DNA of 6,778 bases from the IMG/VR virus record IMGVR_UViG_2695420382_000017; one strand, given 5' to 3'. Under the pieces are notes generated by a model that was given only the letters and a program-made list of their open reading frames with translations, ran no database searches and was not told where the DNA came from. This DNA is from a virus (lineage: Duplodnaviria; Heunggongvirae; Uroviricota; Caudoviricetes). Within the stretch, counting starts at the first letter, position 1; every line of letters begins with the position of its first letter. Both the position numbers and the translations under genes were made by a program. Below, in pieces: positions 140-6,778 of this stretch.

Positions 140-454
140 CTAACAACCCGTAATCGAGTTATCAGAACTGTTAATTTTTATGGTATACCGCGCCTCTGAA
201 CAGGGGCGCGTTTCTGGCAACAGCTCGTCCCCTTCACATAACCCGGCAGCAACATCCAGGAAGACCTGTCTGATGCTCCTTCTGGCTGCTGCCTCATAAA
301 ACTCCAGCGCGGCACCTTCAACACGGTCCAGCGAGATGTCCAGGTCAAAAATTTCACCGTCAAAGCGTTTTTTGTCCCGTAACGCTAAAGTTACCGTAAC
401 TTTATTCTCAAAATTGCGGATCCCTTTCACAATCAGTTCATAGTTTTGAGTCAT
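140..454 (-). CDS. Small acidic protein in the lysis cassette, YdfR-like (DUF1327-type), 104 aa, function unknown
   Basis: Intact 104-aa ORF with GGAG about 9 nt upstream of the ATG, starting 4 nt after the holin stop (likely translational coupling). The position between pinholin and endolysin and the ~103-aa size match ydfR of the E. coli K-12 Qin prophage (essQ-ydfR-rrrQ), recalled from memory, not sequence-verified. No hydrophobic segment. Confidence 0.6.
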   Translation of the reverse strand: MTQNYELIVKGIRNFENKVTVTLALRDKKRFDGEIFDLDISLDRVEGAALEFYEAAARRSIRQVFLDVAAGLCEGDELLPETRPCSEARYTIKINSSDNSITGC

Positions 455-458
455 TGAA

Positions 459-674
459 TTACTCTCCCCGTGCAGCCTTACGACGGTCCTCTCTGATTTT
501 GAAATACAGGTTAGTCAGATATGTCAGCAGCCCAAACAGCAGACTCCCCAGCACGCCTATTGCCGCCCACTGAGACGGGGAAACCCTGTCCAGCAACTGC
601 AGGAACCAGTAGCCCGTTCCCACCGCTGACGTGGTGTATGACACACCTGTTGTGATTTTTTCCATCTGGTACAT
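459..674 (-). CDS. S: Class II holin, S21-type pinholin (71 aa) with dual-start motif MYQM
   Basis: Translation [71 protein letters not shown] has the phage 21 S21 C-terminus (...[19 protein letters not shown]) and two TM segments. GGGAGA Shine-Dalgarno lies upstream of the ATG at 674. The ORF-track extension to 752 runs through an intrinsic terminator and is not credible. Confidence 0.8.
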
Positions 675-709
675 ACCCCGTCTCCCGTTATCCGGAAGCT
701 GACAACAAT

Positions 710-741
710 AAAAAAAGCCACCAGTTAAGTACTGATGGCTC
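710..741 (-). terminator. Rho-independent terminator between nanS-p and the holin gene (minus strand)
   Basis: Minus-strand sequence AGCCATCAGT-ACTTA-ACTGGTGGCT forms a 10-bp stem (one G-U pair) with a 5-nt loop, followed immediately by TTTTTTT (plus 710-716). Confidence 0.6.
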
Positions 742-824
742 TGATAACTCATGCAGGCATCTCAGACGACCCACTGACACTACCGGTGAGTTTAACGATA
801 CCTTCCATTTGGCTGGCTCACTTT

Positions 825-2678
825 TTATGATGATGCCGGTGCATTTATCTCCAGCACCAGACTTTCTATCTCAACGCCATACGCTGCATTTTTGGTAATA
901 TCCGTCAGCGTCAGCGCATTCAGCCCCAGTGTCAGACTGTCTTTTATGACCTGGAATGCCGGGCCAGCCACTCCATTCAGTTTCGGAGTAACCGTGGCAC
1001 TGCCGGCGGTGAACACCAGCTCCAGCGTCAGCCAGTCGTTACTGTAATTCCCGAACTCGCCCAACTTTGTGTTTCCTGCTTTCTTGTGATGCATCAGATT
1101 CAGTTTGCCGTCTGTGGTCTGGGTGAAGAACGACATCAGGAACGGGTTACCAGTCCCGGTCATCGCCACGACGTCAGGTAACGCTACATCGGTATACAGA
1201 TAAATTCCCAGACCGAACTGGTTGGTGGTCAGTGCGCCTGACAGTCGAAACTTACAGCTCAGTCTGCCACCCCGTGTCAGCAGGGAGACTGCGTCATCCA
1301 CCGGGCGCGTCAGGGACCAGGCTTTATTGCTCTGCTTGGTGATCTTAAATACACCATCTGACAACTGAACTCCGCCATTCTTAATGCTCCAGCCCTGCGC
1401 AGCAGCGTCTCCGGCTGTCGGCAACAGGGAGATTGTGCGTATGGATGCATCTTCAGACGGCCCCGATGGCGTGTCGCCGCCGGGCGAGGGTTTGATTTCC
1501 GGTGCCTTACCACTAATGAAGGCTAAGGTGCGACCGGCTACGTTCAGAATAGCAGTTGCCATACGATCGGGAATAATGCCACGACGCGCCCATGAGCTGA
1601 AATGCGTCGGGCGATTTGATGATACCCAGTTTTTGTTCGTTCGGGATGCCGAACCGTAATAACCAGACCCGGCAATATCAGGATCTTCTGACGGGTTGTT
1701 TGTCGGTGTATTAACTCCGCTACCATCGGTCATAAAGGGAACAAAATAAATCTGCTGGGATTCTTTACCTTTATATGCACCATATACCACTTCATATTGC
1801 GTACCGTGTTCTTGTTTCCACGCGTATGTCGTGTCGCCACAAATCCAGGGGACTGATGCCGGACTTCCACCGTGACACTGCGCCGCCAGCCCGGCAAGGT
1901 CAGCACGGAACTGCTGTACCATTGCAAGAAATGCTGCTGGCTGCTGGGCGTAACTGGCATTCGTCATATCGAATTCCCCCTGCATCCAGCATATCGCCAG
2001 CAAAACGTTTTTCGGGTTTTTCTGCAATGCTGCCTTCGTGCGGAAAAGCAGATCCTGATATAACGGCTTACCCACTCCCCAGCGAGCCGAATCCTGACTG
2101 GCCCCCGTGGACTCGCTGAATGTCCCCTCCGTGCCCTGGGTGAATGCCGAACCACCACGACAGCATGGTACCAGCAGGATCCCCGCATTATTAGGGATAT
2201 ACGGAAGCAGTTTTTTGGCAATATGTAAGCCCTGTCCGACACAGCCGTACTGCCCTTTGCTCAGGTCAGCCCGGGGATGGTTAATCGTACTCATATCCTG
2301 AACATCATGCAGACAATGGTCAGCAGGAATGATGTCGTTAAATACGCATACTTCACCACCGGGAGTCACTGTGTTACGACGGGCCAGTTGCTTAATGCGC
2401 GGATGGGGCGCATCGTATGAATCCGGAAGCGGAAGACCTTCACCGTAAGCCATGGCATTGGATTGCCCGGCCAGTACGATGACGTAGTACCACTCCGGCT
2501 CAGTTGCACCACTGACGACCACATCACCTTCTGCTGCAATCGCCTGCATCAGGGTATAAGGGGTTATGGCCACCGGACTACCAAACGGCTGCCAGCCCTC
2601 CTTCAGTTTTTGTGTCAGTCGTTTCGCAAGGTCTGACGGCGATGCCGCCCTGACCACGTCATAGTGTTTAAATGCCAT
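825..2678 (-). CDS. nanS-p: Prophage-encoded sialate 9-O-acetylesterase NanS-p (N-terminal DUF1737-like domain, SGNH/SASA esterase domain, C-terminal putative carbohydrate-binding domain), 617 aa
   Basis: 617-aa ORF starting MAFKHYDVVRAA... with GGAGG Shine-Dalgarno 5 nt upstream. It contains the SGNH-hydrolase motif VIVLAGQSNAMAYGEG. Domain order and position (downstream of the tRNA/stx locus, upstream of S) match nanS-p of Stx-phage-like prophages in EHEC (established knowledge, from memory). Confidence 0.9.
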   Translation of the reverse strand: MAFKHYDVVRAASPSDLAKRLTQKLKEGWQPFGSPVAITPYTLMQAIAAEGDVVVSGATEPEWYYVIVLAGQSNAMAYGEGLPLPDSYDAPHPRIKQLARRNTVTPGGEVCVFNDIIPADHCLHDVQDMSTINHPRADLSKGQYGCVGQGLHIAKKLLPYIPNNAGILLVPCCRGGSAFTQGTEGTFSESTGASQDSARWGVGKPLYQDLLFRTKAALQKNPKNVLLAICWMQGEFDMTNASYAQQPAAFLAMVQQFRADLAGLAAQCHGGSPASVPWICGDTTYAWKQEHGTQYEVVYGAYKGKESQQIYFVPFMTDGSGVNTPTNNPSEDPDIAGSGYYGSASRTNKNWVSSNRPTHFSSWARRGIIPDRMATAILNVAGRTLAFISGKAPEIKPSPGGDTPSGPSEDASIRTISLLPTAGDAAAQGWSIKNGGVQLSDGVFKITKQSNKAWSLTRPVDDAVSLLTRGGRLSCKFRLSGALTTNQFGLGIYLYTDVALPDVVAMTGTGNPFLMSFFTQTTDGKLNLMHHKKAGNTKLGEFGNYSNDWLTLELVFTAGSATVTPKLNGVAGPAFQVIKDSLTLGLNALTLTDITKNAAYGVEIESLVLEINAPASS

Positions 2679-2900: not shown

Positions 2901-2908
2901 GCCCACAA

Positions 2909-2929
2909 GAAAACCCCTCCGGAGAGGGG
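2909..2929 (-). terminator. Rho-independent terminator, minus strand, formed by the hairpin at the edge of repeat copy A
   Basis: CCCCTC-CGGA-GAGGGG hairpin; on the minus strand it is followed by TTTTCTTGTG. It is convergent with the plus-strand terminator at 2873-2900. Confidence 0.45.
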
Positions 2930-3140
2930 CTAAAGCCGCGTATCTGTATCATCATGCACATGGTGCCGGGTGCCTCCCGGTGAGTTCAGCCCGGTGCCAC
3001 TAAACCCGCGTCATTCTCGTTTTGATAATCAGAGATTATACCGTCACCAGTCGCCCCTCCGCTCAGGGGGATTCACCATGCGAAATTTTTTTAACAAATG
3101 CCCAGTCTGACAGGCAACTGTCAACTTACTGAATTGTGAG
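2914..3140. repeat. ~210-bp noncoding repeat module, copy A (diverged, roughly 70-75 percent identical to copies B and C)
   Basis: Shares with B and C the blocks CCCCTCCGGAGAGGGGCT, CATGGTGCCGGGTGCCTCCCGGTGA-TTCAG, CGCCCCTCCGC-CAGGGGGATTCACCATGC, TTTAACAAA, CAACTGTCAAC and CTGAATTGTGA, separated by diverged spacers with indels. Confidence 0.7.
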
Positions 3141-3345: not shown

Positions 3346-3399
3346 CTGATACTGTAGTACCTAAGGTTCCAGAAACTGTGATGTATCCGGCACAGAAAA

Positions 3400-3608
3400 G
3401 CCCCTCCGGAGAGGGCTGGAGAGTGGCGCTATGTGCCATTGCATGATGCCGGGTGCCTCCCGGTGAATTCAGTACCAGCACCTGAATCCGCGATTATCCC
3501 ATATACCTACTCGCTGATTGCCCCTCCGCACAGGGGGATTCACCATGCCAGTTTCTTTTAACAAACTCCCCGCAAAACAGACAACTGTCAACCGTCTGAA
3601 TTGTGAAG
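3400..3608. repeat. ~210-bp noncoding repeat module, copy B (about 97 percent identical to copy C); distal end truncated by or abutting the IS1 remnant
   Basis: Near-identical to 5675-5884, differing by 1 indel and about 4 substitutions. Begins with hairpin GCCCCTCCGGAGAGGGC and ends CTGAATTGTGAAG, directly joined to internal IS1 sequence. Confidence 0.85.
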
Positions 3609-3946
3609 CCAGCGCTGGCGCGATTTAGCCCCGACATAGCCCCACTGTTCGTCCATTTCCGCGCAGACGATGACGTCACTGCCCGGCTGTATGCGCGAGG
3701 TTACCGACTGCGGCCTGAGTTTTTTAAGTGACGTAAAATCGTGTTGAGGCCAACGCCCATAATGCGTGCAGTTGCCATGTTTTACGGCAGTGAGAGCAGA
3801 GATAGCGCTGATGTCCGGCAGTGCTTTTGCCGTTACGCACCACCCCGTCAGTAGCTGAACAGGAGGGACAGCTGATAGAAACAGAAGCCACTGGAGCACC
3901 TCAAAAACACCATCATACACTAAATCAGTAAGTTGGCAGCATCACC
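3609..3946 (-). mobile_element. IS1 remnant: left inverted repeat plus insA-proximal ~340 bp, truncated internally
   Basis: Minus strand begins GGTGATGCTGCCAACTTACTGAT (IS1 terminal inverted repeat) at 3946 and continues with IS1 insA-region sequence. Relative to canonical IS1 as recalled from memory there appears to be an ~85-bp internal deletion. The element ends at an internal IS1 position at ~3609 with no right end. Confidence 0.8.
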
Positions 3947-4018
3947 CGCCTTGAGCGAGATATATTAAAAAAAGCAACAGCGTATTTTGCACAGGAGTCG
4001 CTGAAAAATACGCGTTAA
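3947..4018 (+). pseudogene. IS3-family orfA, C-terminal fragment (5' end removed by the IS1 insertion)
   Basis: Frame encodes the typical OrfA C-terminus DILKKATAYFA with a stop at 4016-4018; there is no start codon because the element is truncated at 3947. Confidence 0.6.
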
Positions 4019-4053
4019 TCGAACAATGGCGACAACAATTTCCCATTGAAGCG

Positions 4054-4872
4054 ATGTGTCAGGTATTTGGTGTATCCAGGAGCGGTTATTACAACTGGGT
4101 ACAGCATGAACCCTCAGACAGAAAACAAAGTGATGAGCGGCTAAAACTGGAGATTAAGGTGGCACATATCCGCACTCGCGAAACATATGGAACCCGGCGG
4201 CTCCAGACGGAGCTGGCAGAGAATGGCATCATCGTTGGTCGTGACCGACTGGCACGTCTTCGTAAGGAGCTAAGGCTACGCTGTAAGCAGAAACGCAAGT
4301 TCAGAGCGACTACGAACTCGAACCACAATCTGCCAGTTGCGCCAAATCTGCTGAACCAGACGTTCGCTCCTACAGCACCAAATCAGGTCTGGGTGGCGGA
4401 CCTGACGTATGTTGCCACACAGGAGGGATGGTTGTACCTCGCTGGCATCAAAGATGTTTATACGTGCGAAATTGTCGGCTACGCCATGGGAGAGCGCATG
4501 ACAAAAGAGCTGACAGGTAAAGCCCTGTTTATGGCGCTCAGGAGCCAGCGCCCACCTGCCGGGCTAATCCACCACTCTGATCGAGGTTCACAGTACTGCG
4601 CATACGATTACCGGGTCATACAGGAGCAGTCTGGTCTGAAAACATCAATGTCGCGTAAAGGTAACTGTTACGACAACGCTCCGATGGAAAGCTTCTGGGG
4701 AACGCTGAAAAATGAGAGCCTGAGCCACTATCGTTTTAATAACCGGGATGAAGCCATCTCAGTAATACGGGAATACATTGAGATTTTCTACAATCGTCAG
4801 CGTCGTCACTCTCGTCTGGGGAATATCTCCCCGGCAGCCTTCAGGGAAAAATATCATCAGATGGCTGCTTAA
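4054..4872 (+). CDS. IS3-family transposase OrfB (DDE integrase-type catalytic domain), 272 aa from the first ATG; normally expressed as an OrfAB fusion by -1 frameshifting
   Basis: Translation contains hallmark IS3-family OrfB segments (NQVWVADLTYV, HHSDRGSQY, NCYDNAPMESFW, YNRQRRHSRLG), consistent with the DDE catalytic triad region. Confidence 0.9.
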   Translation: MCQVFGVSRSGYYNWVQHEPSDRKQSDERLKLEIKVAHIRTRETYGTRRLQTELAENGIIVGRDRLARLRKELRLRCKQKRKFRATTNSNHNLPVAPNLLNQTFAPTAPNQVWVADLTYVATQEGWLYLAGIKDVYTCEIVGYAMGERMTKELTGKALFMALRSQRPPAGLIHHSDRGSQYCAYDYRVIQEQSGLKTSMSRKGNCYDNAPMESFWGTLKNESLSHYRFNNRDEAISVIREYIEIFYNRQRRHSRLGNISPAAFREKYHQMAA

Positions 4873-4913
4873 AAAAAGAACAAATGGTAGTGTCCGCTAT
4901 TGCCAGTACACCT

Positions 4914-5042
4914 CAGGGTATAAGGGGTTATGGCCACCGGACTACCAAACGGCTGCCAGCCCTCTTTCAGTTTATGTGTCAGCTTTTCCGCAAGATCTGA
5001 CGGCGGCGCCGCCCTGACAACATCATAGTGTTTAAATGCCAT
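4914..5042 (-). pseudogene. nanS-p paralog, N-terminal 43 codons only, disrupted by the IS3-family insertion
   Basis: Minus-strand translation MAFKHYDVVRAAPPSDLAEKLTHKLKEGWQPFGSPVAITPYTL matches the first 43 residues of the intact NanS-p with 4 differences (about 90 percent nucleotide identity by eye), then reads into the IS right end. The upstream leader differs from that of the intact copy. Confidence 0.85.
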
Positions 5043-5235
5043 GGTTCTTTCCACCATCTGAAAAATAATTCTTTAAAATACCTGACATGTAATACAGAAA
5101 AAACACAAAACCATACCTTAAATAAAAACCTGATTATCAAGCAGATATGCATGGATAAACTACAAGACGAGATATAAACCACCCTGCATTTAAATAAACA
5201 ATAAACAACATCAGAAAAATAATTCTGCTCTATGG

Positions 5236-5302: not shown

Positions 5303-5638
5303 ATGAAGTGGATTGTGATTGATACAGTTATCCAGCCATCATGCGGAATATCTTTTTCAGTCATATGGAGTAAAATAAAATTAATAATCTGGTATCAATC
5401 GGATGCTTTCTTACCTCCTGAAAGTATATTTACACTGACTCACACAGGCATCATGCTCAATAACAAAGTGCTACCTGTAACCATTTACAACGTAGTACCA
5501 TTCAATAAAACATTCTGGAATTTAATCAAAAACAGCCAGGAATGCCCTACAAATACAGATAACGTATTGAATGAATGCTTTAATAACCGTTGCACTCTGC
5601 AAATATGTCCTTATGGACTAAAACAACAAAGTCCATAA
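5303..5638 (+). CDS. Hypothetical protein, 111 aa, AT-rich orphan moron ORF, convergent with the phage late operon
   Basis: Strong Shine-Dalgarno (AAGGA, ~6-nt spacer) before the ATG and a candidate promoter upstream. The region is AT-rich by eye (not counted). Five Cys residues. No family recognised. The 3' end is covered by an 11-bp perfect inverted repeat. Confidence 0.5.
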
Positions 5639-5674
5639 GGAGTTTACTCACATCTGACAAAATCAATATAAACA

Positions 5675-5697
5675 GCCCCTCCGGAGAGGGGCTGGAG
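5675..5697 (-). terminator. Candidate rho-independent terminator (minus strand) at the end of repeat copy C
   Basis: GC-rich 7-8 bp stem with CGGA loop; the downstream minus-strand sequence is T-rich but interrupted. Confidence 0.4.
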
Positions 5698-5884
5698 AGT
5701 GGCGCTATGTGCCATTGCATGGTGCCGGGTGCCTCCCGGTGAATTCAGTACCAGCACCTGAATCCGCGATTATCCCATATACCTACTCGCTGATTGCCCC
5801 TCCGCACAGGGGGATTCACCATGCCAGTTTCTTTTAACAAACTCCCCGCAAACCAGACAACAGTCAACCGCCTGAATTGTGAAG
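5675..5884. repeat. ~210-bp noncoding repeat module, copy C (complete)
   Basis: Near-identical to copy B and clearly related to copy A. On the minus strand it ends in hairpin GCCCCTCTCCGGAGGGGC followed by the T-rich GTTTATATTGATTTTG. Confidence 0.85.
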
Positions 5885-5918
5885 TATTTAAAAATTTCTC
5901 CCGCTAACTGATACCCGG

Positions 5919-6005
5919 CTAACAGTCTGGCGTTTTCTTTTTCAGCAACGGGAAAGCAACAACCACCACACCCGCCACCAGCACACCGTCAGCCAGCACT
6001 GACAT
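5919..6005 (-). CDS. Candidate small hydrophobic peptide (28 aa: MSVLADGVLVAGVVVVAFPLLKKKTPDC); speculative
   Basis: ATG-initiated small ORF encoding one predicted TM-like segment followed by KKK; only a weak GGA Shine-Dalgarno-like element. The same DNA is a CA-rich tract on the plus strand, so the ORF may be coincidental. Confidence 0.15.
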   Translation of the reverse strand: MSVLADGVLVAGVVVVAFPLLKKKTPDC

Positions 6006-6085
6006 TATCCGGCTGCTGCAATGCCATTCACAAAAACAGTAAGCAATCACTTTTTACCGTAACAGGTGATAATCCAGATATGTAT

Positions 6086-6439
6086 CTACCCCAGATGAGT
6101 AATCCGAAGTTCATCCATACCACAGGTCCTGGCTATTCTGTTGTACTCCTGAACAAGAGCAAATAATTCTGAATTAGCAACCATGAACTCATCGCAAACC
6201 CTCTGTATAGCATCACTATTCAGAATAATAACGTCTCTTCCCGAAAGACGATCAGGAGTACAGAACAAAACTGTCAAACGGCTGAAGGCCTTTGCTCGTG
6301 CTGCATTGACTATATCAATACGCTGCCTAAGGATGAAACACCCCGACGCCTCATCAATATTCACTCTACCCACACCATATGAATGATAAATATTTAATGC
6401 TGAAAAAACCATTAGACCGTATAACAAACACTCAATCAA
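6086..6439 (-). CDS. Hypothetical ORF, 117 aa, at the position occupied by stxAB in Stx phages; doubtful
   Basis: Open frame in late-operon orientation just downstream of the tRNAs, but it starts with TTG and has no recognisable Shine-Dalgarno, and no family is recognised. May be a decayed or noncoding region. Confidence 0.2.
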   Translation of the reverse strand: MIECLLYGLMVFSALNIYHSYGVGRVNIDEASGCFILRQRIDIVNAARAKAFSRLTVLFCTPDRLSGRDVIILNSDAIQRVCDEFMVANSELFALVQEYNRIARTCGMDELRITHLG

Positions 6440-6549
6440 TACTTAACAGAACTTTTATTTTTGACAAACATAAAATATTTTCAACAATATCCTGAGCCAG
6501 GTATATTTCAGTATAAGGCTCTGCCGGAAGGAATCTGGAAGAATGAATA

Positions 6550-6626
6550 TGGCGCGCTGTACTGGATTCGAACCAGTGACCGATTGCTTAGAAGGCAATT
6601 GCTCTGTCCGGCTGAGCTAACAACGC
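6550..6626 (-). tRNA. argO: tRNA-Arg (anticodon UCU)
   Basis: Minus strand GCGTTGT-TA-GCTC-AGCCGGACA-GAGC-A-ATTGC-CTTCTAA-GCAAT-CGGTC-ACTGG-TTCGAAT-CCAGT-ACAGCGC-G-CCA: canonical cloverleaf with a 7-bp acceptor stem (one G-U), TTCGAAT T-loop, anticodon TCT and encoded CCA. Similar to E. coli argU. The symbol is assigned by position; it could equally be argN. Confidence 0.85.
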
Positions 6627-6639
6627 TGAATACCGATAA

Positions 6640-6719
6640 TGGACCGCCATCGGGGACCCGCCCCCGCACCAACAACCCTGTTATCGTGTCGTCTGCTCTT
6701 CCTGATAAGCTAATGGCGG
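6640..6719 (-). tRNA. tRNA-like element or pseudo-tRNA: perfect 7-bp acceptor stem, discriminator U and encoded CCA, plausible D-arm, but no canonical anticodon or T arm
   Basis: Minus strand CCGCCAT...ATGGCGG-T-CCA with D-stem GCTT/GAGC and a GG-containing D-loop. A manual search finds no 5-bp stem with a 7-nt loop at the anticodon position, and the T-arm has a 6-nt loop (CGGGG/CCCCG stem). It occupies the middle slot of the ileZ-argN-argO type cluster. Confidence 0.35.
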
Positions 6720-6726
6720 TTTGTGA

Positions 6727-6778
6727 TGGTGGCCCTTGCTGGATTTGAACCAGCGACCTGGCGATTATGAGTCGCTCG
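6727..6778 (-). tRNA. ileZ: tRNA-Ile (anticodon CAU, lysidine-type, ileX/ileZ-like), 3' 52 nt only; 5' part lies beyond the window end
   Basis: Minus strand ...GACTCATAATCGCC-AGGTC-GCTGG-TTCAAAT-CCAGC-AAGGGCC-A-CCA: CAT anticodon loop, canonical T-arm, acceptor 3' strand and CCA. Strongly resembles E. coli ileX. Confidence 0.75.

Follow-up and report, generated by a model that had tools for sequence, protein, structure and literature searches.

We found that the interval between the tRNA genes and an STnc100 sRNA gene in a 6,778-nucleotide stretch of viral DNA (the window, by which we mean the whole stretch analysed) holds a cargo cassette (5883..6541, minus strand) in the position taken by stx2AB in Stx2 phages. 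We conclude from sequence comparison that this cassette carries a real and conserved protein-coding gene, here called orf92, beside the eroded remains of the gene pair tciA-tciB. This anatomy, in which the slot is that of stx2AB, orf92 is a coding gene of the length given below and tciAB has been eroded, we consider highly probable. The orf92 family is already catalogued (PHROG, WP accessions) and the architecture is that of a familiar stx-negative lambdoid late region; the general understanding of lambdoid phages is unchanged.

The cargo slot and its flanks

The minus strand is the reading direction of the late region in the window. In pairwise blastn, the Stx2a phage Stx2_EH2201 (LC567829) aligns to window positions 6778-6542, which contain the tRNAs, at 88% identity, and then again from 5882; the unaligned gap measures 1,368 bp in LC567829, where it contains stx2A and stx2B, versus 659 bp in the window. 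Stx2 phages align to the region as two separate blocks, between which they carry the toxin genes. Because Stx2a-phage homology stops at 6542 and resumes at 5882, with stx2AB between, positions 5883-6541 are exactly the stx slot, as the original prediction of an stx-equivalent position had it. The stx2AB cassette (Stx2_EH2201, 933W type) and the window cassette share this insertion slot to within a few bases: both follow ileZ-argN-argO, lie ~30 nt before STnc100 and stand upstream of iraM, nanS-p (yjhS) and the S-R-Rz lysis genes, in like orientation in what we take to be a Q-dependent late operon. STnc100 immediately follows stx2B on the 3' side in the Stx2a phage (L010, 5134-5345), as it does the slot in the window. 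The two cassettes differ in content as well as in length, as that of the window is unrelated to stx in sequence and would encode a 92-aa protein of the cytoplasm and what remains of a small membrane peptide, whereas stx2AB encodes an AB5 toxin. G+C content is 38-46% across the flagged interval (5885-6549), which is lower than in the neighbouring window sequence and agrees with its earlier description as moderately AT-rich.

The left flank of the slot is an argO-like tRNA-Arg (UCU) gene (6550..6626, minus strand; ARAGORN, and Rfam at 68 bits). Upstream of it lies a degenerate argN-like remnant (6627..6729, minus strand), recognised by alignment to argN of the Stx2a phage; its acceptor-stem ends match Stx2-phage argN, its interior has diverged and contains a 4-nt insertion, and neither ARAGORN nor Rfam at E ≤ 1 called a tRNA there. 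The window end cuts a third gene (6730..6778, minus strand; Rfam tRNA, 33 bits, 5'-truncated), the 3' part of an ileZ-like tRNA that has a CAU-type anticodon in near-identical loci; L002, L012 and L010 have a tRNA-Ile/Met at the matching position. The ileZ-argN-argO block, at its 88% identity to the Stx2a phage, thus has two recognisable tRNAs and one degenerate position. The interval is directly 3' of tRNA-Arg, as had been stated, and the 'cluster' named in the original prediction comprises one intact, one cut and one degenerate gene. E. coli strain 64 (L002) is identical in sequence to the window at 6627-6729, and the argN position is likewise without tRNA annotation in the remaining window-type RefSeq loci inspected.

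The right flank is an STnc100 copy (5664..5853, minus strand; Rfam RF02076, 132 bits). The window has two further copies on the same strand, at 3388-3577 (124 bits) and 2901-3110 (161 bits), the last of which is the closest of the three to the copy found 3' of stx2B in the Stx2a phage (86% identity). PasD sRNAs are related to STnc100 in a 2026 preprint (doi 10.64898/2026.05.13.724894). The stretch of backbone that links the slot to nanS-p contains an iraM-like anti-adaptor gene (5303..5638, plus strand; NCBIfam PRK09919, E = 4.7e-48), and iraM is annotated at the equivalent position in Stx2 phages. Lying antisense to the late genes next to the toxin slot, this prophage-borne gene for an RpoS-stabilising factor may merit a separate look.

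Downstream of the slot, STnc100, iraM, nanS-p and an S-type holin follow in Stx-phage order, with an IS600/IS1A interruption and a partial duplication. The initial ~62 codons of a first nanS-p copy (4869-5057, minus strand) are cut by IS600 (orfB, 4054-4872, plus strand), which is itself truncated by an IS1A fragment (insA, 3724-3891, minus strand). Past this fragment begins a second late-region segment with the two other STnc100 copies, a complete nanS-p encoding SASA, DUF1737 and DUF6645 domains (825-2678, minus strand), a P21-type holin gene (459-752, minus strand) and a DUF1327 gene (140-454, minus strand), so that the nanS-p and S21-type lysis genes named earlier are indeed there. As no complete E. 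coli genome has 80% or more of the window at a single location, the arrangement at 3580-5057 suggests that two prophage late regions were joined through IS elements, possibly in Shigella, to which IS600 and IS1A point. Typical E. coli loci at 99% identity to the window have the Stx2-phage order of DNA methylase, tRNAs, slot, iraM, nanS-p, holin and lysozyme; upstream of the tRNAs, near-identical E. coli loci have either an antitermination protein or a DNA methylase gene.

A conserved 92-codon frame in the slot

The original prediction described a 117-aa frame (6086-6439) that opens with TTG and lacks a Shine-Dalgarno sequence. This frame is present on the minus strand, and is the mechanical maximum of the frame of orf92 (6086..6364, minus strand; 92 aa, GTG start, intact). 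The phrog_2873 profile (108 positions) matches residues 10-117 of the 117-aa frame end to end (E = 3.8e-70), and a word index and a library-wide HMM gave 23 and 19 homologue matches, respectively. Identity is 54-63% in other E. coli prophages and 33-41% in Citrobacter, on IncF plasmids and elsewhere, the distant homologues having been found by the library-wide HMM search. The full-length distant relatives are all 91-95 aa long, and window orf92 has both the conserved length and the FSRLTV-x2-TPDR motif region of the phrog_2873 family.

In three pairwise clade comparisons, orf92 has a dN/dS of 0.25-0.26, and third-position differences are about twice those at each other position. Of the six frames, only the sense frame is stop-free in all four clades examined. 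An antisense ORF (6183-6386, plus strand) was set aside as a shadow frame, as its low omega is expected for its phase and it has stops in three of four clades. Window orf92 and its counterparts in five window-type loci are uninterrupted; polymorphism among these five loci amounts to four nonsynonymous changes versus one synonymous, numbers which are too few to test and are compatible with relaxed constraint. From the homologues and the codon-level evidence, we conclude that orf92 is a real conserved protein-coding gene (6364-6086) and not the decayed or dubious frame that had been suspected.

The start of orf92 is most likely GTG 6364 and not the TTG, as the conserved coding core begins at this GTG. 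In L007, in-frame stops occur within 25 codons upstream of the GTG-equivalent position; its 92-aa product is the commonest form of an AraC-linked clade (P0079; at least 1000 contigs). The upstream extension is absent from distant relatives, and the full-length ones among them start at an aligned Met or Val in the position of GTG 6364. Full-length homologues with canonical starts, which the original prediction had named as the mark of a real gene, exist for the 92-aa core: Citrobacter (L014) and IncF plasmid (L019) members start with ATG, and L013 (P0024 clade) has AGGAG 5 nt before its GTG. PGAP calls exactly the 92-aa form in L018. The Shine-Dalgarno sequence before the window GTG is weak (GGGTAGA), and before TTG 6439 or ATG 6412 the sequence contains none. 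The in-frame extension (6365..6439, minus strand) is probably a 5' leader rather than coding; the leader RNA (6340-6470) has no structure beyond that of shuffles (z = 0.89).

Two other readings of the frame need to be weighed against this one. If it were a chance or decayed ORF without product, its conservation merely reflecting the recent common ancestry of a widespread defective prophage, we would expect what is seen in the lack of PGAP annotation in the window-type loci inspected, the weak Shine-Dalgarno sequence, the lack of Pfam or NCBIfam matches and the 4:1 ratio of nonsynonymous to synonymous changes within the clade, tiny as these numbers are. However, homologues down to 33% identity keep length and frame in prophages, Citrobacter and IncF plasmids, every other frame has stops in at least one clade, dN/dS is well below one and the predicted fold is confident; this reading is strongly disfavoured by the cross-clade codon evidence, and we regard it as very improbable. 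Alternatively, the gene may be real and longer, with 108 aa from ATG 6412 or 117 aa from TTG 6439. The 108 positions of phrog_2873 and many GenBank calls correspond to the 108-aa form, and the window-type loci examined and a rare L009 variant have no stop in the extension, but the stops in P0079, the lack of the extension in all distant relatives with their aligned starts, the position of the L013 AGGAG and the PGAP call in L018 make a longer product distinctly unlikely.

The segment (at least 80% of its 665 bp) is present in 1,183 of 5,426 complete E. coli genomes, in most at 95% identity or higher, and in one of 50,697 phage records, that of mEp460_ev081. A tblastn search of the same records with three family members also returned only mEp460_ev081, and the idea that orf92 is a phage P1 gene beside tciA is unsupported. 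Members of the P0029 clade stand alone between IS5 copies on IncF plasmids; this locus led us to reject a P1-like assignment of that clade. A divergent allele (58-61% identity) is found directly after the gene for a 241-aa AraC-type (HTH_18) regulator (L003-L009; L007, 3969-5062), in another prophage late region and without tciAB, and in some genomes this AraC-linked form has a foreign N-terminus from an IS3-family insertion (P0017). One contig, L013 (JAEWMQ010000075.1), is labelled 'MAG: Bacillota bacterium'; because its positions 1000-2080 (1,081 bp) are 99.9% identical to E. coli chromosomes and it carries enterobacterial prophage genes, it is almost certainly mis-binned.

Remains of tciA-tciB and the ancestral cassette

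The original prediction recognised only one frame in the interval, which overlooks a 43-aa DUF3927/TciB-like ORF (tciB', 5919..6050, minus strand; Pfam DUF3927, PF13064, E = 1.7e-27; phrog_1470 'TciB-like', E = 7.8e-13). Its DNA is 91% identical over 134 bp to that of JLK-2012, an stx-negative phage of E. coli O55:H7 which has tRNAs, tciA, tciB, nanS-p and S-R-Rz, and is without orf92. The C-terminal 28 aa of tciB' are identical to JLK-2012 TciB and the rest is not TciB. Relative to JLK-2012, 20 nt are missing from the part of tciB that encodes the first helix, and the native start codon (6061-6063) is changed from GTG to GTT, so that the 43-aa ORF starts at a new GTG and its N-terminus is scrambled. 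At the C-terminal end, the transmembrane (TM) helix and tail are intact, leaving one TM segment instead of two. A tail of ~18 nt (6060..6077, minus strand) is the sole remainder of the TerB-like gene tciA, as recognised by alignment to the tciA-tciB of JLK-2012, L013 and C. braakii, and is joined to the sequence at a point ~10 nt past the orf92 stop; tblastn with TciA gave no match in the window. As read from these alignments, tciB' is a truncated tciB without its native start and first membrane helix, and tciA is deleted, these being the elements by which the window falls short of JLK-2012. In the literature on DUF3927 and TciB we found nothing functional. The gene names tciA-tciB are also in use for phage P1 and P1-like phage-plasmids. 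A universal pairing of orf92 with DUF3927 was considered and rejected, as the 45-aa ORF that follows AraC-linked orf92 is unrelated to TciB.

Intact relatives of the cassette are found upstream of holin genes in E. coli 357900, in L013 (99.9% identical to 357900) and in Citrobacter braakii, in the order orf92, intrinsic terminator, tciA, tciB. In these cassettes tciA is a TerB-like gene of 141 aa, and tciB (50 aa, two hydrophobic helices) has a start that overlaps the tciA stop; the E. coli 357900 proteins are WP_001017777.1 (orf92), WP_000900603.1 (tciA) and WP_000833498.1 (tciB). The cassettes of E. coli 357900 and C. braakii ATCC 51113 carry the gene family of the window at 62% and 39-43% identity, respectively, and have an equivalent location, upstream of the holin genes and bounded on the other side by the Q/methylase region in E. 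coli and by tRNA genes in Citrobacter. Unlike the window, they keep the terminator, tciA and a full-length two-TM tciB, and their lysis genes are of other types. The terminator after orf92 (L018, L014) has compensatory stem changes between E. coli and Citrobacter; in Citrobacter, terminator-like hairpins flank orf92 on both sides, and in E. coli L018 a promoter-like site with 10 of 12 matches lies upstream of it. In the window, promoter-like sites are consensus matches only, near chance expectation, and the terminator after orf92 is deleted.

These comparisons point to an ancestral orf92-terminator-tciA-tciB cassette, carried in a lambdoid late operon as exchangeable cargo (a 'moron'). In the window, one deletion has taken out the terminator together with tciA, of which ~18 nt are left, and tciB, without its start codon and first TM helix, is reduced to a 43-aa ORF. 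Morons, in the sense of Hendrix and Juhala, are autonomous cargo units between conserved late genes, with lambda bor and lom as examples. The window cassette resembles them in its conserved flanks and lower G+C, as do its relatives in having orf92 with a terminator and a promoter-like site, and differs from them in that its own terminator is deleted and its promoter only putative. From the terminator, the flanking hairpins and the promoter-like site, we infer that the anatomy of orf92 in the relatives is that of an autonomous moron.

Whether the slot content is a leftover and whether orf92 still functions are the remaining points on which other explanations bear. A deletion scar, in which a Stx phage lost stxAB and kept leftover flank, would fit the identical backbone on both sides of the slot. 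No match to stx2A, stx2B or their immediate flanks was found anywhere in the window by blastn (word 7, E ≤ 1), however, and tblastn (E ≤ 10) gave no meaningful match to stx in the window (best E = 0.37, outside the slot); furthermore, what fills the slot has its homologue in a separate cassette, orf92-tciA-tciB, that is intact elsewhere. A scar is therefore extremely unlikely, and the stx remnants which the original prediction had proposed to look for were not found at this sensitivity. Because the window contains neither a nucleotide nor a protein trace of stx, its slot content is, on this evidence, a cassette replacement of the kind seen in ordinary cassette swapping, rather than a decayed toxin locus or a deletion scar; with flanks that align to the Stx2a phage, the earlier view of an stx-negative late region on a Stx-phage backbone holds. 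More weight is due to the possibility that orf92 is structurally intact and functionally dead in the window lineage, drifting in a degraded, IS-ridden prophage. The adjoining tciAB is eroded and the terminator gone, argN is degenerate, nanS-p is disrupted by IS600/IS1A, changes within the clade stand at 4:1 nonsynonymous to synonymous and the Shine-Dalgarno sequence is weaker than that of L013; nevertheless, the ORF is uninterrupted in the window and five window-type loci, ~1,180 complete genomes retain this form of the cassette and other clades carry orf92 without tciAB. We consider a dead gene unlikely, though a contender to be taken seriously. As tciAB is deleted and degraded and orf92 intact, the earlier suggestion of lost or eroded cargo applies to the neighbouring tciA-tciB and not to the flagged ORF.

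The orf92 product and the meaning of the slot

An AlphaFold2 model of the orf92 product is confident (pLDDT 84.8, pTM 0.71) and has a helix / beta-hairpin / helix arrangement; the protein is acidic (pI 5.7), lacks a TM segment and is predicted to be soluble. Searches with orf92 found no family in Pfam and NCBIfam, no meaningful match in a PDB sequence-profile search and, by Foldseek of the model against PDB and BFVD, only generic helical hairpins, none at E ≤ 0.001; prefoldin-beta (TM 0.70) was rejected as a relative, being judged a generic topology match. PADLOC defence models (E ≤ 0.1) matched none of orf92, tciB', TciA, TciB or IraM. Going by the model, the product is most plausibly a small acidic cytoplasmic helical hairpin that acts by binding another protein.

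When stx2 occupies this slot, it is expressed by late-promoter read-through. Transcription of orf92 would occur in the same way, by Q-antiterminated read-through on induction, and orf92 may also use a promoter of its own, since an intrinsic terminator follows it in relatives and hairpins lie on both sides of it in Citrobacter. The product may originally have worked in concert with a membrane-associated TciA/TciB pair. In two clades orf92 accompanies TerB-like TciA and membrane TciB, which suggests that its role is linked to the envelope or to stress. It is able to stand alone, however, being found without tciAB behind an AraC-type regulator and, flanked by IS5 copies, by itself on IncF plasmids. 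Taken jointly, the mode of expression and the action proposed here for orf92 are tentative, and we give them limited credence. More doubtful still is that orf92, alone or with TciA/TciB, is a payload that competes with Shiga toxin for the Q-controlled slot, is switched on at prophage induction and affects phage-host conflict or host physiology; were this so, it might, for example, exclude superinfecting phages, modulate the envelope or stress, or alter when lysis occurs.

The results bear more directly on annotation. In the three window-type RefSeq loci inspected (L002, L016, L017; 99% identical to the slot), PGAP leaves orf92 unannotated and annotates beside it the truncated 43-aa 'DUF3927 family protein', whereas in strain 357900 it annotates the 92-aa P0024-type orthologue. 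Because PGAP skips the allele in these loci, orf92 may be missing from RefSeq annotation for many complete E. coli genomes among the ~1,180 with this segment. The gene model is corrected from the 117-aa TTG frame to 92 aa from GTG, and the annotated 'DUF3927 family protein' at the slot is exposed as a truncated tciB. For lambdoid prophages, the finding means that the stx position serves generally as a slot for exchange, sharply bordered by the 3' end of tRNA-Arg and the 5' flank of STnc100, and that the orf92 cassette is one recurrent alternative cargo of this slot.
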